Source: Lama glama | Lineage: Eukaryota | Direction: 5' to 3' | DNA length: 64,000 nucleotides | NCBI GenBank assembly: GCA_028534125.1 | Contig: CM052828.1 | Span: 1,922,001-1,986,000 of the forward strand | In this document: piece after piece, positions 5,995 to 56,400 of the stretch | How the letters are laid out: each line of letters begins with the position of its first letter | Position numbering within the stretch: position 1 is the stretch's first letter | The notes under the pieces: model-generated | What the model was told of the DNA's origin: nothing | Seen by the model: the letters and a program-made list of their open reading frames with translations, nothing else | Database searches by the model: none | Program-made: the position numbers and the translations under genes

Positions 5995-6160
5995 CCCAGA
6001 CCTCCTCCTCGCGCCCAGACCCCGTCCCCACCCCCGCCCACGTCCCCAGACCCCGTCCCCACCCCCGTCCGGGTCCCCAGACCCCGTCCCCGCCCCCCCC
6101 CAGGTCCCCAGACCCCGTCCCCGTCCCCCGCCCGCGTCCCCAGACCTCCTCCTCGTCCCC
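5995..6160. repeat. Degenerate ~31-bp GC-rich tandem repeat (6 copies of a CCCAGAC-initiated unit), G-rich on the SACS sense strand
   Basis: Units begin at about 5995, 6014, 6045, 6075, 6106 and 6138. The inner four share CCCAGACCCCGTCCCC; the first and last read CCCAGACCTCCTCCTCG. Confidence 0.85.
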
Positions 6161-6191
6161 GGCCTCCCGCCGCGGGCCCGGGCCGCCCTAC

Positions 6192-6342
6192 CTGCCGGCC
6201 GCCCAGCCACAGCCGCTGCTCCGCCGCGGGGAAGCCAGTCTCGGCCGCGAGGCGCCGCTTCACGTCGCGCACCGTCCAGGACGCGGGGACCGCCACCGTC
6301 CTGCAGCCCACGCAGCCGGGCAGCACGGTCACCCGGAGCCAC
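6192..6342 (-). CDS. SACS: Sacsin coding exon (equivalent to human exon 3), 151 nt: (R)[53 protein letters not shown] domain
   Basis: cctttgccttcgcacag|GTGGCTCCGG...GGCCGGCAG|gtaggg. Contained in ORF 5946..6356(-). Close to human [50 protein letters not shown]. Confidence 0.97.
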
Positions 6343-6414
6343 CTGTGCGAAGGCAAAGGCCTCAGTGGGCGCCCCGCGGGCGGGCCCGCGGCCCCCCGCC
6401 GCGCCGGCGCTCAC

Positions 6415-6464
6415 CTGTCGCCCATGGCGCGTCCTCACCGCCCGCGCCGCCGCGCCCGCGCCAT
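6415..6464 (-). CDS. SACS: Coding portion of a putative proximal alternative first exon of SACS: MGDR (ATG 6425, donor after 6415) or MARARRRGR (ATG 6464, donor after 6439)
   Basis: gcgccATGGGCGACAG|gtgagc has a strong Kozak context and a 72-nt intron to the 6342 acceptor. agcATGGCG...GGGCG|gtgagg gives a 96-nt intron. Both are phase 2 and in frame with exon 3. Confidence 0.7.
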
Positions 6465-7249
6465 GCTCCCGCCTCAGGCCGGCGCCGCCCCGCCCGGCCC
6501 CGCCGCCGCCCCGGGAGCCGCCTCGCCGACCAGGAGCGCCGGAGGAAGCGAGGCCGGGGAGGGGCCGGCGGAGGCGGCGGCGCGCGCTCCCGGCCGCCAG
6601 GGCCCCGGAGGCGCCGCCCGCGGGCACGCGCCCGCCCGGACCGTTAGCTCAGGGGACGCCCCGCCCGCCCGTCAGGACCCGCCTGCCGGGCTGTTAGCTG
6701 AGGAGCCTCTCCCCGCGTCAGGACTCGCCCGCCTTCGGGCCAGCAGCTCCTCGGGCCCCGCCCCTGCCGCCGGGCCCCGCCCTCCCTCAGGCCCGGCCCC
6801 GCCCTCCCTCAGGCCCCGCCCCGCCCGCCCCGCGGCCGCGGCCGCGCAGGGCACAGGCTCAAACACTTAACGCCGCTCAACGCACGCTTCGAGCACGTTT
6901 CGAGAGCACCGTGTTTCCCCTGGCGGCGTTCAGAAGTGCCCTGAAAGGCAGAACTGGACGACCGTGGGGCCTACCACTCCTTCAGCCCTAGTGGCTGAGT
7001 CTCTGGAAGCATCTCCAAAGATTTCCGGGGACCTCTTAGTCACCAGAGGAGAACGTGGCAGCTGCAGGACGCAGGTGTCTTCGTTTCCTGCTTGTTTTTA
7101 AGGCACAAAAGTAGGATCCGTGATTCAGTTTTCTGGAGTAAGGAGTGCCAGCAGGAAAGTGGTGGGTGAGAACGCACACGAACATATCCTGTGACGCTTT
7201 AAAACGTATGTAACATACTTGGGCAATGTTACCTTGTATTGCTGGTAGC

Positions 7250-20300: not shown

Positions 20301-20323
20301 CTATTATCCTTGGTCTCCGTCAT
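20301..20323 (-). CDS. SACS: Sacsin first coding segment (equivalent to human exon 2): MTETKDN(R)
   Basis: gtgATG ACG GAG ACC AAG GAT AAT AG|gtaaat. Matches the human METKENR N-terminus, and phase 2 joins exon 3 (AG+G = Arg). Confidence 0.9.
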
Positions 20324-20830
20324 CACTTGTCCTGGAACATGTGTCTGTGAAAACCATGAAAATATGTTTTCTTTCTTCTGAGTCTTTCCTCTGTGTTTGC
20401 CTTAAACGTGTGCTCCAGGCTCAGCTCCGCCGGGCCAGCGAAAAGGCTGTTTTCCCCTCAGTGTCCTTTCATCACCTGATGTCCAAGAGCATTGCTGTGC
20501 TCTGTGTTTCGGGTCCTTACAGTATGATCCTCCAGTCTCAAAGAGTTGCCTCCTTGGGCTCTGATCCTTCTGCTCCAACAACCCACAGACGTTCTTAAGG
20601 TAAAATGGTTTTGATTAACTAGTGGTTTTTGGCTTTTCCCCGAAGCAAAGGTAAGCTCTTTTCATCTGAGGAGCTTTGGTGTTTCTTCTTGAACATGGCG
20701 GGGAGATGCTGTAGAAGTTCTCAGGCTCCGTGTGGTCCCCCCCTCATCTCAGCAGACGTGAAATACTCCTCGGCCAGGGTCTTTCTTCTTGCTCTGGGAA
20801 CACCTGCATCTTGGCATCACTTCTGTGATC
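20324..20830 (-). other. SACS: 5' UTR part of SACS exon 2 (whole exon 20301-20830, 530 nt)
   Basis: Strong acceptor ttccttgatttttctttcag|GATCACAG at 20830. The size is close to the ~520-nt human exon 2 as I recall it. Confidence 0.75.
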
Positions 20831-31359: not shown

Positions 31360-31452
31360 GGGGGGGGGTGTAGCTCAGAGGCAGAGCGTGTACTTGGCGT
31401 TCACAAGGTCCCGGGTTCCACCCTCAGTCCCTCCATCAAATAAATGAACCCT
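31360..31452 (+). mobile_element. Vic-1-like tRNA-derived SINE (camelid)
   Basis: G-run followed by TGTAGCTCAGAGGCAGAGCG..GGTCCCGGGTTC..CTCCATCAAATAAAT, with A/B boxes. Confidence 0.85.
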
Positions 31453-40018: not shown

Positions 40019-40680
40019 GGAGGGTGGACAGAATCTATCAACCCAACACGCCTCTTTGGCATATTGATTATTTTGAATTAAAGTTGCTTGAGAGGGGGAG
40101 GCTATAGCTCAGTGGTAGGCTGTGTGCTTAGCACGCACAAGGTCCTGGGTTCAATCCCCAGCACCTCTGCCAAAAAAAAAATGTTAATTAAAAAAATACA
40201 TTAAAAAACTTAATTACCTCCCCCCCTAAAAAAACTAAATAGAAAAAAAGTTACTTGAGAAGCAGTCGGTGTAAGAAGGACACTCTGACCTTCCTTTGTC
40301 CCCCTGAAATCAAGAAATAAATCTCTCACGTGACATGTGCCCTCCCTGTACCAGGAAAGCAGGATCCCTGATCACCAGAGACAGGGGGCTCAGGGCTGGA
40401 AAGGCTGGATAACCAAACCTAGTTCGTTCTTCACCCGTTTGCTACTGCAAGACCAAACTCCTCTGTCTTGTCAGTTCTTCACAAATGTACTGTTTCTTTG
40501 TCTAGCAGGTACAAGAAGTTGCCTGCTTTGGTCATTTCTTTGAATTTCGTATTTTCATGGGGAGCCTGTACATACAGAACTAAATTTGTTTTTCTCTCTT
40601 AATCTGTCTTGTGTCAGTTCAATTATCAGAGCAGCCAAAGAACCCAGCAGGAAGAGGGAAGATCGTTCCGCGCCCATGGA
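40019..40680 (+). mobile_element. MER34-like ERV1 solo LTR
   Basis: Head gcctctttggcatattgattattttga and tail aatctgtcttgtgtcagttcaattatcagagcagccaaagaaccc resemble the LTR at 26321. Confidence 0.7.
40094..40246 (+). mobile_element. Vic-1-like SINE inserted into a solo LTR
   Basis: GGGGGAGGCTATAGCTCAGTGGTAG..GGTTCAATCCCCAG..TAATTACCTCCCCCCC. TSD aaagtt(g/a)cttgaga at 40080-40093 and 40247-40260. Confidence 0.92.
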
Positions 40681-44530: not shown

Positions 44531-47049
44531 CTGTTTTAGCAGCAACACATGAGATGTTGGTAGCAGTGAACCTCACAGTTCAATCCACAAACTGCAGATC
44601 ATAAAACGAGTTTCAGGAAACTGAAGGAAGACAGTACGCGAGCCAGGCAAAGAGGCACTGGGTCTGGGTAAACGCATGGGCCAACGACACCCTTCCGTGT
44701 TAGAAAACAGCCAGCACTCAGGGAGCCCGCGGCACGCTGGCTGTCACCGGCACGCCACTGCTTGACAGTGAGGAGGCTTGGTTCGGAGGAAATTAATTAA
44801 ACTAGTTGAAGCTAAAAGGGGGGAATTTGGCCTTGGAAAGTCCTAAAACCAGGGTTTGAAATGGCACAGGGACTCCCTTTGTTTTCTGTTTCTCTCTGGC
44901 CGGTTTCGCTCTCCTCACTGGCGGTGTCAAACACCAGACCACACACCCGGCTCTTGGATGAGCCCGGGTAGCCCTGTGCACACCGCAGCCGGAGCACCGG
45001 CTTTGGGGAAGGTGCTTGCCCTTACTCGAACCTGAAATGAAGGGCTGCCCCAAGGAAGAGGGGCACTTGGACGCAGACAAAACCACTGTCTGTCCTCACT
45101 GTCTCCACCGCCTCCCGCAAAAGCGTTCTTACGGAATTCAACCCCTTCCCTAAGGAACCCCCACCACCATCATCCTCGCTTGTCTCTGCCGCAAATTTTT
45201 AACCACACGTGTTTCAGGGCCAGGCACGGTGCCTCGTGTTGGGATCACAGGGAGACAAGAGCACAGCCACTCAGGCTGCTGGGTTTTCTTTTATCCCGAG
45301 AGCCAACTGCTCAGCCAGAACAAATCGTTGGTTCATAAAAGGAAATAGCTCAGGCCCGAGGGTGCTGGAGACAGGACAGGGGATGTCACCCGAGAGCAGC
45401 TGTTGCTCCACAGAAGGGGAATGGGGTCATGTGTCTGCCCAGAGCAGCTGCCTCAGGTCATAGTTGACATGGCTCAGTGAGTCCCCCGCTACGACGCCGG
45501 GCAGGTGTCAGAACAGCCTCACCAGGAACGAATGTGTGGAACATGGGAGGGGTGCCCTGTGGACACGTGGCCCTCCGGGTGACATACGAACAAAGCTACA
45601 GCATCCAGGGAGCCCAGGAGAAGCCACATGCGGGATCGGCCCGTTCCCCCGCGGTGCCCAAGGCATCCTTCCAGCTCAGCCTCCTCCGCACGCCTCACTC
45701 CATTAGCCAGCTTTGTTTTGGTCCCCACTGTGGACCATGTCCCCACAAAGTTCTTGTGCTGGATCCTTCTGAGACTGACTCACGACCTAAGAGCTGTGGT
45801 CCGACTCTAAAAGACGTGCTGAGCCCATCAGCTTGGGGATTTTGAACTTGGAGGTGGAGAGATGAAGGTGGGGAGTGATGAAGCCAAGATGAATAGATGT
45901 GAGATGTAAGGGAAGTTGAGCCCAGCAGTGTGGCCACACAGGCTGTGCCTCGGGGGAGGAGGTGTGGGGTGGGGAGAGAGAACAGGGAGCAGATGCGGGG
46001 AAACCCAGGAGCCCAAGGGGGGAGCCCAACCTCAGTGATGTTCCAGACCCAACTTCCAGGAGACCTCTGTCTTGGATTCCTCTGCTTTGATTCTCATCGG
46101 GAATCAAAACTTCCTTAAAGCCCCGCTTATCTGAGCTAGTTCCACGTGACTGGTGGCCAAAGGAGACATCACTCAAACAAAGGAAATTTGAATTGACGTT
46201 TTTTTCTTGACCATTATAAAATATTTCCCCAAGTTACCATCTGTGTTTTAAATACATAGTTTTTAATGGCTAAATAATATTTTGTAGTATAGACACATTG
46301 TATAGGAAATCTAAATACGACAAAGTTGATTACTGTTACCGCTATTAAAATGGATCCCTGAGTACTGAGAAATCTAAGACCTGTGTGTGGTTGCCCCAAT
46401 GATGCAGGAAGAGCTACATTCAAGATTCCTTCTGCCCACCAGAGTGGTCACACACACACAGACACACACACACACACACCGGAATTGACTGTGGAGAAAT
46501 CCAGCATGCCTTCAAAAACTGCCTTGAGCACCATCTTACATCTTAAATCTCTAGCATCCTTCAGAGCCAAAGGCCAGGACGCCGAATCTGAGCAGGGCTG
46601 GTGGGCTTACCGGCACCCTATGTGTGAGCGTTGAACTTGCAGCTGCCGGGAAAACCAGGACCAGGGTTTTCCTTACTTCCTCTTCTTATTCATCTACCTC
46701 AGTGCTCTACCGCTGGAAAGTGCTCAGCAAATGCTCATTTATGATGACGTTAAGGAACAAAGGGTCCTTGACCCAGGCTGTCACTGTGCAGTCCCGGGGC
46801 ACCGTGGGCTCCCGCAGAGGGGCCACTCGTCCCACCACCCAGCACCGCGGCTGCAGCATCACGTCCTGCAGAGGCGGTTTGGACTCTGACTAGACACCGT
46901 AAACTCCTCAGTTTGTGTTACTAACCGGAAAGTCTACGTTCCTAGAGAGGAACCCAGAAGTGTGTCTGCACACCTCAGCTGGGGACGTGCCCGGGACTCT
47001 GCACCTGTCACTTTCTTCCATCCTCACAGCAAACCTCACGATCAAACCA

Positions 47050-48570
47050 GGCTCACAGCCGGGCAAGCAGGAGCTCGCGCAGACCAGGTAAGGCTCCCGC
47101 CGACGCAGAGCCGGGGTACACGCCTTCGCCGCCTGCCACAGGTCCGGGGCGCGGTGGCGCAGCTCCAACGAGCGTCCTGGGGCCACTCATGCCAAGAGGG
47201 GACCAAGTTCGGTTCGGAAGCAAAGGACAGCTTGACTCTTGGACAAGAGAACGGGGAGGCGCCAGCGCTCAGTAGACAGGCGGGGGCGGGGCTGCCCTTA
47301 GGGGTGGGGCGGGGGCGGGGCCTCGCGGGCGGGCGCAGGCGCAGTGGTGCTGCGCACGCTGGGTCCAGGGCCCGGCGGGCGGCTCTGCACACGGCCCGCC
47401 GCCATCTTGGGGCGCGTGGGCGCAGCGCCCTGAGCTGAGGGGTGGACGCAGCCGTTTGGCTCCAGGAAAATGGTCTGAGGTACCAGGTGCGAGGCCTCCG
47501 CACGCGGCCCCCTGCGAGCCAGGGAAGCTAGACTCAGCACGAGGAAAAGGACGGAAAAGGTTAGACTTCACCTTACCGCCTAGATTCGATCCTTGTTTCC
47601 CAGGAATGGGGGCGGGCTCTGCCGGTGACAGACCGGCCTCTGCCGCCTGCCCCTCTGCCGGCGGTGGAGGCGCCGAGGGGCGCGGCCCGGCCCGGGACTG
47701 CGCCCTGCCGCGTGGGCAGCGGGGCGGCGACCGGTGGAGCGGCCGCCTCTGGGTGCGTTTGGTTGCGCCCGGACCTCGGCCCTGACGGTCCGTCTCCCTG
47801 AGTGGCCCCCACGTGCCTGAGTTCTTGGGGACCGAGGACCCCAGTCGGCCGAGGACACGGGGCCCAGATGTCGGGGAGTCGTGGTCACGGGTCGCGGTTC
47901 CTGGAGGCGCGGGTCTGGGGTGCAGGCTCGGCGCCGGGCCGGGTCTCCCCGCGCTCGCTTTGGGTGCTTTCCGGACGGGAAGCTCGGGTCAGAGCGAGGT
48001 TCCCAGCAGGACTCGAGGGGTCCACTGCCTCTGGTCGTCTCCGCGGTTGGGGCTCAGGGCCTCTTCCCTTGTCTGTGACGACCCCATGGAGTGATCCCTG
48101 CGGCTTGGGGACAGAGCGGGTGATGAGGGGCTCCAAGTGGGGTCTGCCCCACTTTGGGGAAAGAAGTTTTGCCGTGTTCGTCACCTGCCCCCAGGGCCTC
48201 CTCGATCTTGGCTGAAGCCCCACGTCGGGCTTTGTCCAGTTCCCCTTGGTATGGACTAGGAGTCGCTGGACGGGTCTAGCCTGAGTTGTGGGTCCCAGGG
48301 CCGCCCTGGAGGCAGTTGTCCGCCTCACTGTTTCCCTTTACGACCCCTCCGCCCCCTTTTGGTGGCCCCTGCGATGAATCACTCCCACCTTCCTGGGAAG
48401 CTGTACTGCTCCTAAGAGCCTCAGGGCCCGAGCCACAGTCACCCGTCTGTTCTCCGCGGTAAGTGTACCTCTTTCCTTCCGAACGGCCCCCGCCTGCCCG
48501 CGTGGGATGGCACGCGCGTACCAGGAGCCTGTGAAACGTCCCAGGTCTCCCCCGTCCTGCGCGCTAAGGC
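47050..48570. promoter_or_regulatory. CpG island built from the ERV 3' LTR and adjacent pol; putative promoter
   Basis: Dense CpG, GGGGCGGGG boxes at 47283-47291 and 47306-47320, an NRF1-type GCGCAGGCGCA at 47333-47343, and a YY1 motif GCCGCCATCTTG at 47398-47409. Confidence 0.75.
47134..47850 (-). mobile_element. 3' LTR of the provirus (both edges approximate)
   Basis: GACCAAGTTCGGTTCGGAAGCAAAGGACAGCTT (47201) aligns to GACCGAGTTCAGTTCAGAAGCAAAGGAAAGCTT (52636). CTAGACTCAGCAC..GGTTAGAC..GATTCGATC is shared between 47528-47591 and 52937-52989. Confidence 0.85.
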
Positions 48571-50135
48571 TCCTTTGAGGGCTCTTGGCTTCGCCCTTTG
48601 GGCTGAAGTCCCTGGAGGCTGGCTTCTTGCTTCTGTGGCTCGAGTCTGGGAGGTCAGTGCATGTCCCGCCAGCCTTTGTCCCCGTCTCGTAAAACACCTC
48701 CTGTCGGAGCCGTTGCTCTTCGGGGTGTGGGAGAGGCTCACTTCCTGGGTCAGGGCGACTGGACTGGACCGTGCCTGTGTTTTCCGTTCAGCCATGTTCC
48801 GGGGGCCCCATTTCTGTGGTTGGCGGGGTGGCAGGAGTTATTCAGCATGTGGCAGATTTTTATGGTGGCCACTGGGTTGTCTAAGAGCATAACCTGAACT
48901 TGAACCAATATTTCGGGATAACCATTCTGTTCCTTTAGGTCTTACTAAAGCCTGACTCCTGTATGGAGTCCACATAGTGACAGACTGACCAGATGTCAGC
49001 TTTTCAGCTACCTTTCGCAGCCTCCATAGACAAGAAGGCCATCCCTTAGCAGTTTGATCTAGTTGTTTAGAGAAAGAAACAACCACTCGAGTAAGGGGTC
49101 CCAGTTTTTGAGCTAATACTCCAAGGGTGATTCCCCTTCTCTCGTGAATGTAAAGGTCAAAGAGTTTAGCCAACTCTGGGGATGGGAGCCCTAGGCTGGG
49201 GCCTGAAGTAACTGCTTTTTTAGCTCTTGAAAGGCCCCTTTGCATTCTGAATTCCATTCAAAAGGATCATCACCCTTCCCTTCTAACGTTTCATATAGAG
49301 ACCGAGCCATTAGACCACAGTTAGGGATTCAGATGCGCAAAACCTCGCTACCCCCAGGAACCCCTAAGCTGTCTTCCAGTTCTAGGAGGGGCGGGGCTGC
49401 AAATGGCTTCTTCCCTTTCCAGGGGTGGGCTTCTCTGACCTTCTGTGAGAACAACGCCCAGGTAGGTCACCCCAGTTTGTGACATTTGAGCTTTTTCTTG
49501 GACACCTTATACCGTTTATCGGCAGGATGGTTCAGAGGTGGCCTTACTGGGGCTCGCAGTCAGAATGCCATCTGCACACTGAGGGAGGGTCCCCTCCTCC
49601 AGATGCAGGTCTCTTAGGTCTTTAGCTACAGTTTCCCCAGAGATGGGGGTTTTTGAGCCCTTGGGGCCGGACTGTCCAGCAGTGTTGCTACTTTTGTTGC
49701 GTGTTTAGGTCCTGCCACTCAAAAGGAAAAATTTCTTCTGACTCTGGGGCTAATGGAATACAGAAGAAGGCGTCTTTTAAATCTAATACAGACACCAGGC
49801 CCTGGTGACGGCAGAGTGGCCAGCAGGGTGCAGGGATCAGGGACCGCTGGACGTGTGTCCTCGGTGGCTTCATTCCTGCCCTGAGGTCCTGTACCACCAA
49901 GTATTCCCCACTGGGTTTCTTTATGGGGAAAATGGCGGTATTACAGGCTGGCTGGCCTGGCCGAAGGAGGCCCTGGTCAATTAGGCCCCGTATAACAGGG
50001 GCAGGGCCAACAAGGCCTCCCGATGGAGAGGGAGCTGTTTTCTGTTGGGCCACGAATGTCCAGGTTTCAGACGGACTCTAGTGGACTGGCTCCTGAAGCT
50101 CGTCCCACCCGTTCCTGGGCCCAGACCTCAGGAGG
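47960..50135 (-). pseudogene. ERV pol remnant (RT, tether, RNase H, integrase ends; integrase core deleted)
   Basis: PEVWA.., CNTAIFPIKKPSGEYLVVQDLRA, VLDLKDAFFCIPL, decayed YVDD read as QCADGIL (49567-49578), SKQLDQTAKGWPSCL, PPGTSAQRA, VIHRRGHQKG and PKWGRP..QGITPW. Many stops and frameshifts. Confidence 0.92.
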
Positions 50136-50146
50136 TAGGAATGCCA

Positions 50147-51172
50147 GGGGCTTTCTTCGGCTCCTGGTGGATCTCTCTTATCTTACTCCAGTTGACGGGT
50201 TTCTTCCCTCTGCCTGGATTCCCTTGAGGACCATGTTTTTATGGAGGGTCAGCCTCTGTCTTCCTCCCCTTCCCCCTTGTCTCTGTGGTCCCAGCCAGGC
50301 TGGTCACCAGGGGCCACCTGAGTCCCCGTCTGGAAGCAGCATGACCTGCGTCATTTCTGTTCTCTTTGCTTCCTTTTGGGCTTTTGAGAAGACCCTGGCC
50401 TTTCCTTCCCCTGTTGGGAGCACGTGGAGGAGGCCCTGGATGTCAGCCAGGTGGGGATCACAGATCTGAAAGTTTCCCCTAATCAGATTCAGGACCCCCC
50501 CCCCCGGATCTCCCCTCAGCCCCTTACCGTGGCTTTTCCAGTAACGCTGACCAGAAGTGGTAGATGGGACGTGGACCTGGGTGAGGCCTCCTTCTCTGTC
50601 AGGGACCTGCCTCAGAGGGAGCACTTCTACTGGGGGTCGTTGGACCCTGGCTGCTAATTAGTCCGGCTTCGTGTACTTGCTGGACTGGGTTCTGGGGAAG
50701 GGGCTGGTGTGGAGGAAGGCCCCTCGGGCCTGTGGCCCAAATCAGGACAAATGAGGAAGGGATCAGGGAGGGAGTGGTGGAGGAGGGTGAGGGAGGAGAC
50801 CAAGAAGGCCCTCGGGGGAGGGTGAAGGCTGGGTATCACCCCAGTGGGTCGGGTCGGTTGGGGAGAGCGCACATCCCTTCTGAACGCCTTTGTTCTGCTG
50901 TAAGGCCATAAGAAACCTGGGCAGAGCGCATTTCATCCCATTTCTTTTGTCTCGGGCATAGCAGGTCCACTTGTAAAACGGTGGTGTAATTTAGAGACTC
51001 ACTGACAGGCCACCTTTCCCCATCTCCCAGCGGTGCTGGGGCCAGGCTGTATTATATGGGAAGATTAAGTATTTCAGGGTCGGGTCAGGGAGTAATACTG
51101 AAAATTTTCCATGTCTGCAGCATGCACCTAACAGGCTAGCCTTTGAGGGTGGTGGACGTCTGGTTCCCTCAC
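50147..51172 (-). pseudogene. ERV gag remnant (matrix, proline-rich linker, capsid N-terminal part to the MHR)
   Basis: Frameshifted segments NTAWPQH..WPVSESLNYTTVLQVDLLC..KKWDEM, LPLRQVPDREGGLTQVHVPSTTS, ADIQGLLHVL and PVNWSKIREIHQEP. Confidence 0.88.
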
Positions 51173-52546
51173 CTTAGATGTTCTGTTTTAGATTTGTTTC
51201 CAGCTACTGAGGGGGCAGTTGGAGTGACTTGTTGGCCCACAAATGACGTAAGATTTGACCCAAGTAAGATCAGAAATCTTATTTGAGAAATTCAGAACCA
51301 GCAGAAACCAGTTCATGGATTCCTCAGAAGACCAAAGTGGGAGGTGTCCAAATGGTGTGGACTCTGATAAGACAGGGGGTCCCCCTTGAATTTGTAACAG
51401 TCCGTGCTTGGGACAGTCAGTCCCTCCTCAGTCAGAATGTCCCCCAGAAGGTTGGACGGGGCTGCTTCAGGCCAGAGCAGCATAGCCACGTTAGGTCCTG
51501 ACCAGTGTGGTTCCTTGGGGGTGGCACAGCTGAGGGGGTTCTTCTCTTCCCTCCTTTCAGCCAAAGATGCGGAGTTTTCAGACTTCCCGTTGGCTAGGAG
51601 ATAAAACCGAGAGGGATTCCCACAGGGTAGTCACCTGACAATTGGGGCAGCCGGTATTCTCTGCCAATCCCAGGAGGGGGGCCCACGGAACCTCGGTCGA
51701 TGAAGAGTCACCCAAGTTTCGCCTCACAGGCAGAGGGAGGAGGAGAGGTGGGGCAGTGGGTGTTTCCTTTTCTTACCAGCAGCTTGTAGGACATTCCAAT
51801 AGCAGAGTTCCTGGTCTTGTAAGAGGCTCACAGGGCTCCCCAGCCCACTTTAGAGGAACTAGTGCTGACCGGAAGTGGTCAGGCCATCAGGTACCTACCC
51901 AGGGGCCCTCTTGTACTTGGCGATCGTTTCCAAAGCTGGGATCGAGCATCCTCGTTCCGTTCTGTCAGGTATCCCATCACCTGCGCCTTTTCCCAGTCTC
52001 GCCTCTTGGCTCAGGGGACTGCCACTCCTTTACCAAACTGAGAATGACCATGGAGAATGCCGCTGTTGCCCCGGAGGTCCGCGAGGAGGGCAGAGAGCCC
52101 CGTTGCAGCCACTGCGCCTTGTACTGGGGTCAGGAGGACAGCACTGATGGGGAGACAGTAGGCAAGATTGCGTGGCTCCCTCTGGTCCACAGGTCCCCAC
52201 GGTCCCCAGGCAGCAGGTCTGCGGGAAGGCCGGCCAAAGGCGGCAGGCAGGCAGGCATGAGCTTCAGTCTCCAGCCTCCAGTGGTACTGCAGTGTGATCC
52301 CTCAAGGGAGTGCCGTCCAGATGACTGTGGGGGCCACACCGTATGCCCGCCTCACCGGAACTGCTGGGTTGCTCGGCAGAGTTGTTCTGAAGTCAGCCAA
52401 AGGCTGCCACGTTTTACCTCGTCATAGTGTCCTCAGAGACCAGTCAGTCATCCCCACACAGACCTCCCAAAGCCTTCGCCGACCTCCCACTGAGCTGGGG
52501 GAGCCCAGAGCCTGGTGGGTGGGTGCAGGTGAAAAGGCCACGATGC

Positions 52547-52564
52547 ATCCCTTCATGGTTGCTA
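52547..52564 (-). other. Primer-binding site, tRNA-Arg type
   Basis: TAGCAACCATGAAGGGAT is 16/18 identical to TGGCAACCACGAAGGGAT, the complement of a tRNA-Arg(TCG) 3' end. ERV9/HERV-W-like elements use this type. Confidence 0.8.
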
Positions 52565-52569
52565 AAATT

Positions 52570-53468
52570 TTTTACCACCCCTTTTGAGTCGGACAAGATT
52601 CCACCTGCCTGGTGTCCTTCCAGCCAACAGAACGAGACCGAGTTCAGTTCAGAAGCAAAGGAAAGCTTTTTCCTTTGATCTGAGACTGGAGAGGTGTGAA
52701 CTTGCTGGCCAGAGCCCGGGGTCCCCGTCAGGCCGTGGGCAGGGCTGCTTTACGGGGTTCCCAGGAGCGGGGAGGGGGCCGCGGTCCTCACGGGGTGGGC
52801 ACGGCAATGCTGCTCACACTCCAGATCCAGTGCTGGTGCAGCGTCTCTGCAGCGCCTACCAAGGTATGGCGCAGGTATTTCACACCAGGAGCTCTGGTCT
52901 GAAGTCCTGCATGCAGCCCCCTGGGAGCTAGTGAAACTAGACTCAGCACAAAGAACGGTTAGACATGATTTCATGACCTGGATTCGATCTCCATTCCCTG
53001 GGAGGTGATAGTGGGTTTTGCTGTGACGCGGCTGATCCTCCTGACTTGGTGGGTGGGTCCTGGACAGAAGGGCCCTCCTGCAGCTGCTGGGTGTGGCCTG
53101 GGGGCCCTTCTGGTGCTGGCTCCAGTGGCAGAGGGAGATGATTCTTGGGGGCTTCAGCACGCTGGGACTTCATTGGAAGGAACTGAAAACACTTCACTTC
53201 TGTTGTCCAAGCAAAAATGGAACTCAGTCTGGGGGCTGGTTCTCCCAGGCTGGTGACACAAGGGCCTCTCTGCTACACTTGGCGGCCAGTCTGTGTGCAG
53301 TGCAGTGCTTTCCGGGCTCGTGGGTGGACTTGTACTGATCTTTGGGCTGGGCCACGTGGCCTACCCAGGCCTGCATTTCCCCACAGCCAGTGGCGCCACC
53401 AGCCTTGATGATGCTACTTCCAACCACAGGGGGGCACAGTGGCAGCATTAAAAATTTCCGCTCTCGCA
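52570..53468 (-). mobile_element. 5' LTR of the provirus (~900 bp)
   Basis: Starts TGCGAGAGCGGAAATT at 53468 and ends ...GGGGTGGTAAAA (decayed GGTAACA) a few bases before the PBS. Homologous to 47134-47820. Confidence 0.85.
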
Positions 53469-56400
53469 GTTGCTGCTGACCTCGGGGTTTGGGGGAAAGA
53501 CCCATGCTTGAGGTTTTGGGGATTTTTTTTGTCTTTGTAATAAATTGTTCTAGTACAAACTCAAACGGGCTTATTCAAAACAGAGCCTGTTCTAATGCCC
53601 TCAGTTTGTAGATGAGAAAACCAAGGCCAGAAACCTGCAGGACCTCTGCCTCCCAAGGTACGCAGGTGGCTGGTGGCCCAGCTATGCTCCCGGCTTCTCC
53701 AGGGGACCCGCCGTGCCCTGGCCAGAGCCCAGGGCCCAGGGCTGGGCGAGGGCCACACACAGGTCAGAGGACACAGGAGGACTCCGGGCAGGAGCCCCAC
53801 TGTGTGCAGCAGAGGATTGCCCAGGAAACTCCGGCATCATTTCCAGACTCAAGGAACTGGTGATGTGAGGGGAAATCAAGGAGGACACAGCACAGGAAGG
53901 AGGACGGTGGACACACGTGGAATCCTGAAGGGCTTAACCAGCCTCGGCTGCACGTGCAGGGCCAGCGATCACCCCCCAGGTCACGGAGTGGAGTGGCGTG
54001 GCTGCCGGCTTCGCTTCCGCTCAGAGTTGACGAGCTGAGGCTCAGTTCTTGAGAGTCTGGTGAAGGATCCAGTGTGAACGGCTGTCAGGACAGGCCATGC
54101 AGGGCAGCACTGCCTGCCAAGGCCCTGCACACTGTCAGCCACTAACGCAGGGGGCTTTGAAGTGAACCCACCAACAGACGGAGTCAGTGCTCTCTGGGCC
54201 CTGAGAGTCTGACATTTAGACACATTGCCACTTAAAAAATTTATTTTACTTAACAATTTTACTGTATGTAGTCACAATCATTCTAACTTAATTGCTGGTG
54301 TCTTTGTAACTTTATTAAGTATCTTTTCTTACATATAACCTTGTTAACCTTTCCAGAGTAATGCAGTAAATAAAAAGGACAAAGAAAGAGACCAGCCTCT
54401 CATTTCTTAAAAGAGGTGCAGTCTGTTTCTTCTAGAGGCAAATAATCCAAAACAAAGAGAATTTAACTGGACAATAAAAGACAGTTATGCTTTATCATTT
54501 ATAGAAACCGTACCCTTTCCTAAAATGGTTTTGATAAAGTTTATCAAAAAAGCATACAAAAGGTCTAATAAAAGAAGAATGAGATGGGAACTAAGGATCA
54601 AGGGGAAAAAATTCAGTAAATACAACGATGACAACATGCAACATAGTTTCTGTGATTGAATGTAAAGCATGGCTCTGAGCTTCCTGAAGGCCAAGGCAAA
54701 AGTGGAAAGAAGAGAAATAAGTAATATCAGCAAACAGAAGAACGTAAATTTTTTTTAAAATTATTTCCCTGGAAACCAAATCTATAAAGAGTTGCTGTGT
54801 GTGAGGATTTCTATGATGGCTTTAAGTGAAGAAATGGTGGACAATGTCCTTTGTAAGAGTTTTTGTACAAATTGGAGGAGGTAAGAATAAATATTCCAAC
54901 ACAACCTAGTAAAGTTAATCCCATGAAAGGGGCGGCCAACCTGAGCAAACTTCTGAAGAAAAACTTAGAATTCCTGCAAGTGGAGGCACAGAATTTAGGT
55001 ACCTGTTCCTTCTACAGCCTTGTGCCTGGAGCCTGGCGTTGAAGACTGGAGATAGCTTGTTCCCATGTAAACTCAGATGGAACTGTTCAAAACCGGATCC
55101 TGCAAGAATCCAGCATCTCCGATTTGAAATTACAAATGGTTTTCATGGGCTGTGTGGCCACTTGGCAGGCACCCAGGCACAGACCCTGGGCTGTCCAAGT
55201 GAGTCCCCTGGCAGCACTGGGCACTGACAGTGGATGTCTCAGCTGTGTGTGTGTGACACAGCTTTATTTCATCTCTGGGTTGAATTTTGAGCAGATGTGC
55301 TTTGCTCTCTCTCTCTCTCTTTTTTTTTTTTAAGGTAAAAAGCAATGAAAAATGCTGTGGTTTTGAAATTAAGTGAGCTCTTGAAAAATATCAGCTTTGT
55401 TTGGCTTCAGATTTTGTTTTTTCCTATACTCTAAGTTTCTCTTCTTGGCAACAAAATATCTAATTGAAAACTCAGCACGCCCACTGCCTCCCCACTCCCC
55501 ACAAAAATGTGTGGGAAGTCTCCACTAACTGAAAGAGAGTTTTCAGTTTGGTGTAATTTTTAAAGTAAACCAAAAAATAAAAATGATAGCCATTTGCTTA
55601 ATTGTTTAAGCATTTGTGATACATTAATCAGTTAACACCTGCATATCAGTTTTTAACATGCCCAGGGCTGCACTGGGCTATTTAAAAAACGTTTCTTCTG
55701 TTGTCAGGAGTATGACAATCTTGTTGGAGAGGAGGAACTAAAACACATGGTGTAGTTAGAGAACTAGTAAGTACTAATATGTGTCAGATCACCAAGTGCA
55801 AGTTCAAAGCAGGAGGGGCCGTCGTGGGAAGGAGTGGTCAGGGAGGAATTCAGGGTCTTGACCCGTCACAATCACTCCTCACGCACAAGAGAATGAGAAA
55901 TATCTGAGGGTCGTACTGTTCTCTGCCCTCTCCAATTGAACAAATATTTCTCCAGATCCAGATCTCTCCCCAAGTTTCACTGTGGTTCCTTGTTTCCTGT
56001 TAGATTTTTTTTTCAAATCTTTGCTTAAAATGTTGAAGGCCAAACAAGAGCAAGAAAGTCTCGCCCGTGAGTCAGAACCAAGGCGGCTCCCAAGCTCATC
56101 GTTTCACTCACTCTCAGATTCCTGAACATAGACCTGCATTCCTGCTCTTAATCCTCCCTTGGCGACCTTCCACCCTGACATCTTCTTTTGTGCAGAGAAC
56201 CAGGCAGGTTTCTCACCAGCATTAATCCTGTTCTCAGCCAGATTTGTAGATGAGCCCCCAGGACATGAAGCTGCCACGGGGATCCCAGCCCAGGCTTCCC
56301 ACCTAGCTGGACACTGGCCGGTCACAGATACAACCGAATTGTTGTCTTTGTAATCATGGTCTCCTGTGAACTTTTGCTTCATCAAAAATGTAACAGCTGA

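Follow-up and report, generated by a model that had tools for sequence, protein, structure and literature searches.

The 3′ LTR of a provirus upstream of SACS lies in a CpG island that has very probably been hypomethylated in the germ line over the long term, and this LTR probably has promoter activity. With its cassette of YY1, NRF1 and GC-box sites, it stands an even chance of being a distal bidirectional SACS promoter that was co-opted before the human and camelid lineages split. Positions are those of the window, the whole stretch of 64,000 nucleotides analysed. The provirus, which by its sequence appears to be an old, broken, ERV1-like element, comprises the following parts:

47134..47630, minus strand: 3′ LTR, 497 bp, CpG o/e 0.79, GC 68%, starting with TG at 47630
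47631..48150, minus strand: 3′ end of the proviral interior, forming half of the CpG island, o/e 0.80, with A/T-to-G/C (W>S) changes at 70/193 and the reverse (S>W) at 5/220
48150..50132, minus strand: broken pol remnant, RVT_1 E 0.066 (below cut-off), with matches to family copies
50304..51051, minus strand: broken gag remnant, Gag_p30 E 0.0014 (below the Pfam cut-off), colinear with other family proviruses
52547..52564, minus strand: primer-binding-site-like stretch, adjoining the 5′ LTR on its interior side
52570..53028, minus strand: 5′ LTR, 459 bp, CpG o/e 0.48, without the YY1 block
53029..53468, no strand: single-copy flank right of the 5′ LTR

The two LTRs are direct repeats of the same family around primer-binding-site, gag and pol remnants; their local alignment scores 155, which none of 200 shuffles reached (maximum 37). 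The primer-binding-site-like stretch may resemble one for tRNA-Arg. Family homology stops at 47630 in the 3′ LTR and at 53027/53028 in the 5′ LTR. The 47134 end is less sure (47124-47165 is possible), with family homology spanning 47630 to ~47162. An earlier note on this DNA had aligned 47.1-47.9 kb with 52570-53468 as LTR twins of 770-900 bp. The repeats it recognized are real, but they end at 47630 and 53028: segments 47631-47900 and 53029-53468 do not align (score 19, equalled by 195/200 shuffles), and a genome search with 53029-53520 found no second match. Thus, the part of the supposed 5′ LTR from 53029 to 53468 is single-copy DNA and not LTR, and the island that the note equated with the 3′ LTR continues into proviral interior (47631-48150) that is equally CpG-rich. 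In the tree of the family, terminal branches (median 0.24) far exceed the 3.9% divergence between the two species compared, so the insertion is old.

The island itself extends beyond the LTR on both sides:

47000..48100, no strand: CpG island whose 200-bp windows have o/e 0.75-0.92; a shoulder reaches ~48700

With GC 0.70 and o/e 0.78, 46950-48150 is a CpG island by length, composition and CpG content (>500 bp, GC >55%, o/e >0.65). No further island was found in 1-kb bins over the 40 kb right of the window. The 3′ LTR contains 45 CpGs (o/e 0.79) and the 5′ LTR 18 (0.48). As the earlier note had claimed, many CpGs of the 3′ copy appear as TpG or CpA in the 5′ copy: 17 of the 45 did so, while 6 remained CpG, 11 had other letters and 11 were gapped; in the reverse direction, 3/18 had decayed. 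When the comparison was restricted to family CpG sites, decay was split 9 versus 1, with more in the 5′ LTR (p=0.02). The 3′ LTR kept 20/25 informative family CpG sites, second of 40 copies, and the 5′ LTR 9/24, ranking 31st. The 5′ LTR, which the earlier note called decayed, is only moderately so by this rank. CpG o/e was at least 0.55 in 28/38 other family copies.

Two further footprints accompany CpG retention. Outside CpG context, W>S changes in the 3′ LTR numbered 44/177 versus 10/221 S>W (p 5e-9), the highest W>S rate of the 40 copies, and transversions alone gave 22 versus 3; the corresponding counts in the 5′ LTR were 22/176 and 9/206. An equilibrium-GC index was 0.91, 0.94, 0.86 and 0.81 across 47.1-48.9 kb and 0.50 and 0.59 beyond. 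This local W>S excess outside CpG context, peaking at 47.1-48.9 kb, is the footprint of a hotspot of GC-biased gene conversion (gBGC) and would be expected of an unmethylated, recombining island. Across family copies, CpG o/e correlated with W>S bias (rho 0.35, p 0.03). In addition, transitions between the two species changed 11/145 CpG positions in 47444-48194, compared with 24%, an indirect estimate, in the rest of the provirus and the right flank. Together, CpG retention, the lower present-day CpG change rate and the A/T-to-G/C peak support germ-line hypomethylation, and the proposal in the earlier note that the 3′ LTR has long been unmethylated there gains from all three.

The promoter-like motifs of the 3′ LTR lie exactly where the earlier note had placed them:

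47283..47320, no strand: GC-box cluster, the densest among 40 copies
47333..47343, no strand: NRF1-type motif, GCGCAGGCGCA, whose exact form also occurs in 8/38 other copies
47398..47409, minus strand: YY1 box, GCCGCCATCTTG, inherited from the LTR family

The YY1 box was intact in 20/33 family copies and was the best-kept of 291 CpG-holding 11-mers in the family. Comparison of copies also bore out that the YY1 block is missing from the 5′ LTR, as it is from 3/38 other copies. CpG richness and the YY1, GC-box and NRF1-like sites all come with the family. Because the sites are shared in this way, the motif argument for exaptation is weak, and we rejected the motifs as proof of it. The presence of YY1 did not predict CpG retention across copies (median o/e 0.67, n=27, versus 0.41, n=11; p 0.24). 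A start site near 47260, as formerly proposed, found no support: the 3′ LTR has an altered TATA-like stretch, and a start is best placed at ~47410.

That placement comes from comparison with human SACS, the features for which are:

20301..20830, minus strand: SACS exon 2, ending in ATG...MTETKDN, to which two human exon-2 guides correspond (one aligned, one by eye)
6192..6342, minus strand: SACS exon 3, encoding the UBL domain and lying under a further CpG island, which has an ATG exon of its own (6425-6415, MGDR)
47357..47385, minus strand: match to the human guide at hg19 chr13:24,007,834, 18/19 letters with one 10-nt gap

Exon 3 matched the sacsin UBL structure 5vsz (E 8.9e-23), verifying that the gene is SACS, and the acceptors at 20830 and 6342 were both as described. 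SACS is the ARSACS ataxia gene. A robust CAGE peak is reported for human SACS, 22 kb above its exon 2 (PMC5094855). In K562 cells, CRISPRi of the human distal SACS TSS is reported not to have lowered SACS RNA (fold 1.07, 217 cells; PMC9380471). The guide at 24,007,834 sits 45 nt below the human CAGE peak, and its best alignment in the whole window was 47385-47357; 5/2000 shuffles scored as high in 46-49 kb and 0/40 in the whole window. It scored 24.5 on the 3′ LTR compared to at most 17 on 39 other copies, and it has in common with the 3′ LTR letters that are rare in the family; 4/150 shuffles of the guide reached an equal score on some family copy. From this match, the human CAGE peak would map to ~47407-47412, at the YY1 box.

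The other human distal guides, 24,007,603, 24,007,989 and 24,008,122, gave no significant match (133, 162 and 500 of 500 shuffles as high), and a resemblance between the first of these and the LTR end, noticed by eye, did not hold up when tested. With three of four guides unmatched, orthology rests on a single 19-mer with a gap. Four mouse Sacs guides did not match either island (scores at most 19). Among the 28 sacsin matches listed by tblastn, none had an LTR-derived N-terminal extension in the first 150 residues. An 89-aa LTR frame had no match in searches, and the pol frame had three. A metagenome scan for orthologues yielded 119 loci, all with CpG o/e of at least 0.8, and only two short GC-rich matches to the island; nothing was obtained from dog exon primers, Dolcetto/Calabrese guides or sequence text searches. 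Since the human TSS lies 22 kb above exon 2 and the guide matches this LTR copy, the suggestion in the earlier note of a lineage-specific promoter is probably wrong, and the 3′ LTR may instead be an ancestral distal SACS promoter. We lean slightly toward its being the same insertion as the human distal promoter and, to a like degree, toward its feeding SACS in some tissue.

RNA evidence came from unstranded contigs of a related species (4 of 19 listed runs taken in) and bears on both the LTR and the adjacent host DNA:

46243..47087, no strand: single-copy host flank (46490-47133 searched for copies), transcribed, ~2.5x less diverged between species than the provirus
46605..46613, minus strand: splice donor CCG/GTAAGC, cut after 46611; one RNA contig has 206 unplaced letters beyond
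47085..47093, plus strand: splice donor CAG/GTAAGG, cut after 47087; three RNA contigs of two studies end there
47557..47565, plus strand: possible donor AAG/GTTAGA in the LTR, cut after 47559; X1 and X2 contigs break there with a 30-nt overlap

Contig depth was 15-27 in the 47.2-48.9 kb bins (three runs, two studies) and 0-0.4 in the leftmost bin, starting to rise inside the LTR. These related-species contigs support transcription at the LTR. The break at 47559 may be a splice branch. No contig ended at a candidate minus-strand donor at 47577, inside the LTR, among the pieces listed. In the stretch examined, which could not have contained both ends, no contig joined the LTR to exon 2 or exon 3 of SACS. 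The clearest splice signs are for the most part directed away from SACS or located in the host flank at 46.6-47.1 kb.

These signs are the strength of the leading alternative, which we consider rather unlikely, namely that SACS has its real distal promoter in the single-copy flank at ~46.7 kb, where a SACS exon would end at 46611 and an exon of the opposite strand at 47087. The provirus would have inserted beside it, and the near LTR would be unmethylated by spread of open chromatin and drive at most RNA away from SACS. Both splice ends seen in RNA are in the flank, and contigs start there, at 46694 and 46723. The flank is also less diverged between species, with 12/799 differences compared to 171/4440 in the provirus (1.5% versus 3.9%, p 5e-4); the 3′ LTR piece, a small sample, had 9/243 (p 0.06 against the flank), like the rest of the provirus and giving no sign of purifying selection. 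Mouse proviruses behave alike, with the TSS-near 3′ LTR unmethylated and the far 5′ LTR methylated (PMC3491417). However, the island and the GC-gain peak centre on the LTR and proviral interior, while CpG o/e in the flank is only 0.26-0.66 (46.4-47.1 kb), and the matching human guide falls in the LTR, with 0/4 distal guides matching the flank. Although X1 and X2 bin depths leave no space for a contig over 47088-47203, X3 depth leaves room for one, the X9 contig runs across 47087 unspliced, and the stretch 47103-47316, which has no listed contig, proves nothing, as gaps between contigs are no evidence.

A second alternative, that the provirus arose by recombination between two family copies and the contrast between its LTRs stems partly from different origins, is improbable. 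The two LTRs do not group in the family tree and have only seven derived letters in common, no excess when other pairs have up to 9 and 15. Among 39 copies, none lies farther from the 5′ LTR than the 3′ LTR does (0.35 non-CpG). The 3′ LTR groups with two other copies of the same chromosome end (92/88), with one of which a pol tract has evidently been exchanged (93-98% identity). Nevertheless, a tree joining the LTRs is not rejected (p-AU 0.23), a long GC-biased branch accounts for the distance, and the flanks GCCG and GGCG match at 3/4 positions, albeit in GC-rich DNA and with an uncertain 3′ end; 15/38 family copies have 4-bp duplications of this quality (6 exact, 9 with 3 of 4). The LTRs are likely twins. 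Slightly less probable still is an island without a selected promoter role, left by a recombination hotspot near a chromosome end (the window lies ~2 Mb into a 61.6-Mb contig) through A/T-to-G/C conversion and repair of CpG mismatches, in a family prone to stay CpG-rich: the strong W>S excess, the many CpG-rich copies, the tracking of W>S by o/e and the lack of extra LTR conservation fit, but the RNA depth rise begins in the LTR, the human TSS-proximal guide matches there, and stable mammalian GC-gain peaks are described at hypomethylated promoter-like sites (PMC11161765).

If the 3′ LTR is the distal SACS promoter, the family cassette would have kept it open and unmethylated in the germ line, a state that would have slowed CpG loss and attracted recombination with GC-biased gene conversion. 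Conversion would then have added GC boxes and extended the island into the proviral interior, whereas the 5′ LTR, having lost the YY1 block, would have decayed as other copies did. Transcripts toward SACS would begin at the YY1 box (~47410) and be spliced to exon 2, the likeliest donor in the camelid lineage being that at 46611 in the host flank, and a long RNA would run in the opposite direction through the provirus. More tentatively, and with slightly less than even confidence, we propose that human SACS has as its annotated promoter and first exon a remnant, so far unrecognised, of this very retroviral 3′ LTR. The LTR would have been co-opted before the primate-camelid split and eroded beyond recognition in humans while the provirus stayed whole in camelids, and its family would seed CpG islands that are YY1-anchored and methylation-resistant at many loci.

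If the human match is true, the reference promoter of a disease gene is retroviral and readable only where a genome has kept the provirus. The locus is also a natural experiment, in which two sequences 5 kb apart, probably once identical, record how an open germ-line state affects the loss of CpGs and the gain of G/C. Because the YY1 box has survived across the family, it can be tested whether a single motif lets an LTR family found CpG islands.

The provirus appears to resemble Class I (ERV1, gamma-like) elements in its TG..CA LTRs, the 4-bp target duplications of some family copies and its putative Gag_p30 and RT remnants (both below cut-off), and differs in that env is absent. In mouse, the two LTRs of ETn/MusD and IAP copies near a TSS are reported to differ in methylation (Rebollo et al., 2012, PMC3491417), in the same orientation as the contrast described here. 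Those elements are young, with identical LTRs and bisulfite-measured methylation, whereas here the contrast is very long-term and fixed in the sequence, and the TSS may be the LTR itself. Germ-line hypomethylated regions are described as PRDM9-independent recombination hotspots, detected by their gBGC (Joseph et al., 2024, PMC11161765). The SACS locus likewise has a local A/T-to-G/C substitution peak on a CpG island, one that is retroviral; the main text of that study does not name camelids. Of TE-derived TSSs of human genes, >93% are reported to be without a CpG island, and they tend to the TATA type (PMC12963367). The SACS LTR is similarly a candidate alternative first promoter of a host gene but of CpG-island, YY1 type, and SACS is absent from the main text and seven supplements of that study. 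Finally, gBGC and the insertion of TEs are both proposed as routes by which orphan CpG islands are gained (Kocher et al., 2024, PMC11170920). Both routes seem active at the SACS LTR; unlike in that study, where repeats were masked, the island here is repeat-borne and lies at what may be the distal start of a gene.

The provirus is broken and lies on the minus strand. We searched the llama's own genome for the same LTR family with two queries, and the best 40 of 309 and best 40 of 166 candidates gave at least 48 other loci. Homology to these loci ends at 47630 and at 53027/53028. The LTRs and the partner of a pol tract discussed below are as follows:

47134–47630, minus strand, 3′ LTR (family alignment)
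52570–53028, minus strand, 5′ LTR (family alignment)
L068:7728–8548 (own-genome contig G000:C13, ~4.034–4.035 Mb), pol-tract partner in a deleted provirus of the same family

The earlier note had carried the 5′ LTR to 53468; this limit is wrong, as 53029–53468 neither aligns with 47631–47900 (195 of 200 shuffles score as high) nor has a second match in the genome. Self-comparison gave a single homologous block, 47176–47629 against 52608–53027, with 61% identity, and 47631–48150 corresponds to the interior end seen in other proviruses of the family. Sub-threshold Gag_p30 and RVT_1 matches occurred in two of 11 frames scanned. In the single-copy flank directly outside the 5′ LTR, 53424–53448 resembles the CTCF consensus. 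ARAGORN reported a tRNA-Pro (31363–31435) and a tRNA-Ala (40097–40172), probably tRNA-derived SINE heads or pseudogenes.

In a tree the two LTRs did not group, and grouping was not rejected (p-AU 0.23; bootstrap not settled). The pol tract at 49257–50124 is 87–98% identical by block (93–98% over 49257–50079) to the deleted copy 2 Mb away and only ~80% identical to other family copies, indicating that exchange between copies has occurred at this provirus. From these identities, recent gene conversion between proviruses is likely.

The proposed CpG asymmetry between the LTRs held up. The 3′ LTR has 45 CpGs (o/e 0.79) and the 5′ LTR 18 (0.48); among aligned CpGs, 17 have decayed in the 5′ LTR versus three in the 3′ LTR, and at family CpG sites the counts are nine and one (p 0.02). 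For comparison, we removed three near-duplicates, five short contigs and three truncated copies from the 48 loci; with one locus contributing two LTRs, this left 38 copies plus the two LTRs of the window. These 38 are best-scoring matches, and thus biased to well-kept copies, and those retrieved with the 3′ LTR are biased to CpG-rich ones; o/e is at least 0.55 in 28 of them, a CpG-rich background that tempers the contrast. Among the 40 copies, the 3′ LTR ranks 10th by o/e and second by CpG retention, the 5′ LTR 31st by both. Since the island spans ~47.0–48.1 kb, with a shoulder reaching 48.7 kb, the proviral interior makes up about half of it.

The 3′ LTR also carries a footprint of GC gain. 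Scored outside CpG context against the commonest letter per alignment column, A/T-to-G/C changes numbered 44/177 and G/C-to-A/T changes 10/221 (p 5e-9; transversions, 22 versus 3). Its A/T-to-G/C rate is double the 5′ LTR rate (p 0.004) and exceeds that of every other copy in the set of 40. The equilibrium-GC index, for which two segments along the provirus had too few copies, was 0.91, 0.94, 0.86 and 0.81 across 47.1–48.9 kb, then 0.50 at 48.9–49.4 kb; it was 0.83 in the exchanged pol tract, 0.59 at 51.1–52.0 kb and 0.78 in the 5′ LTR. Excerpts of PMC11161765 describe the same pattern for recombination at hypomethylated islands. Against the relative that supplied the RNA contigs (~3.9% divergence), the differences listed for 47444–48194 include transitions at 11/145 CpG positions and 10/606 others. 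Elsewhere in the provirus and right flank we counted 221 differences versus 167 predicted from island rates, which implies, as an indirect estimate, CpG change of ~24% per CpG position there.

The argument that binding motifs mark the 3′ LTR as exapted needs correcting: its YY1 and NRF1-type sites were inherited from the LTR family. Of the 33 copies that span the columns of the YY1 11-mer AAGATGGCGGC, 20 carry an exact match, including 13 of the 23 retrieved with the YY1-less 5′ LTR. Its survival is the best of 291 CpG-holding 11-column windows and eighth of all 539. In copies L002–L050, 91–100% keep its CpG, though about half of family CpGs have decayed. YY1 boxes so oriented typically sit just behind a TSS. 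The YY1 block is absent from the 5′ LTR and 3/38 copies, the exact NRF1-type motif is present in 8/38, and AATAAA, found in 21/38, is lost from the 3′ LTR, which has the most GC-box cores. The 3′ LTR also has a strong splice donor, GCG|GTAAGG (47569–47579, minus strand), absent from the other displayed copies and with no use seen.

The locus is transcribed. We mapped unstranded RNA contigs from 4 of 19 runs to 45500–54000; contig details refer to the pieces listed. Depth in three contig sets (X1, X2, X3) was 0–0.4 in the first bin, 3–7 at 46.6–47.2 kb and 15–27 at 47.2–48.9 kb. Coverage in X1 and X2 runs past 54000, so the insertion is common to that relative. Contigs of X1, X2 and X3, from two studies, end at a plus-strand donor at 47087 (26, 2 and 0 letters beyond), which contig set X9 spans unspliced. 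X1 and X2 break at 47530–47559, where a plus-strand donor after 47559 is the sole canonical interpretation. The X2 contig that ends at 47087 also has 206 unplaced letters past 46609, adjoining a minus-strand donor after 46611; this donor, in the SACS direction, sits in host DNA. Transcription thus looks bidirectional, and the visible splice signs favour RNA directed away from SACS. One or more long RNAs pointing away from SACS are likely, comprising a putative exon at 46694–47087 (plus strand) and unbroken coverage of the provirus from 47317 to beyond 54000, reaching >4 kb past 54000 in X2. Divergence is lower in the host flank (12/799) than in the provirus (171/4440; p 5e-4); against the LTR piece (9/243), p is 0.06. 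RNA contigs of other family copies, some at depth >70, cross-match 47378–47468 and 52600–52910 (YY1 and poly(A) regions), and these copies appear to be transcribed.

The idea of a lineage-specific SACS promoter also needs correcting, as a human guide near a distal CAGE peak matches the 3′ LTR. Excerpted sources give human SACS a ten-exon reference transcript, nine exons coding (PMC4996410), and a robust CAGE peak at hg19 chr13:24,007,877–882, which lies 22 kb upstream of the entry for the start of exon 2 (PMC5094855). We took short human sequence from published guides (PMC9829409, in part). An exon-2 control guide fell at 20762–20744 (0/40 shuffles as high). Guide 24,007,834 has its whole-window best match at 47385–47357 on the SACS strand, with 18 of 19 letters and one 10-nt gap; the sole mismatch sets CpG against TpG. 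Its score within 46–49 kb was reached by 5/2000 shuffles (~0.01 allowing for four guides). It scored 24.5 on the 3′ LTR and no more than 17 on any of the remaining 39 copies (4/150 shuffles reach 24.5 on any copy), and seven matched letters, an alignment-dependent count, are present in at most 25% of other copies. By offset, the human peak falls at ~47407–47412, the start of the YY1 box, give or take ~20 nt. No match was obtained with the remaining three distal guides. Upper-case letters are used in print for three of the four distal guides and lower-case letters for one, so the human TSS may not be repeat-masked. From this short sequence match, it is possible that the distal SACS promoter, in human and here, is identical with the 3′ LTR. 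A link between SACS and an LTR promoter was not found in titles and abstract openings; subscription papers, supplements, Dfam or browser annotation may record the repeat. SACS is absent from the covered portions of a human TE-TSS atlas (main text and seven supplements), and those of PMC6303322, PMC10602964 and PMC10741900 held nothing further.

The identity of SACS itself was confirmed by a match to sacsin UBL structures, and the nearest named match to its exon-3 peptide is porpoise (94%). A second SACS CpG island, at 6000–6900, has its own short ATG exon (6425–6415, MGDR), and a short GC-rich tandem repeat (6170–6010, minus strand) lies directly behind exon 3. The proximal-island isoform, MGDR/MWER, is present in bear, bat and human (MWER being the human form), and in K562 cells targeting the human distal TSS left SACS RNA unchanged (excerpts of PMC9380471); the distal promoter is therefore at most one of two.

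Two points deserve follow-up: that the 3′ LTR and the human SACS promoter may be identical, and that the YY1 box has survived across the family. The LTR contrast clearly exemplifies known processes, namely protection of an LTR near a TSS, GC-biased gene conversion at an open island, and co-option of an LTR.
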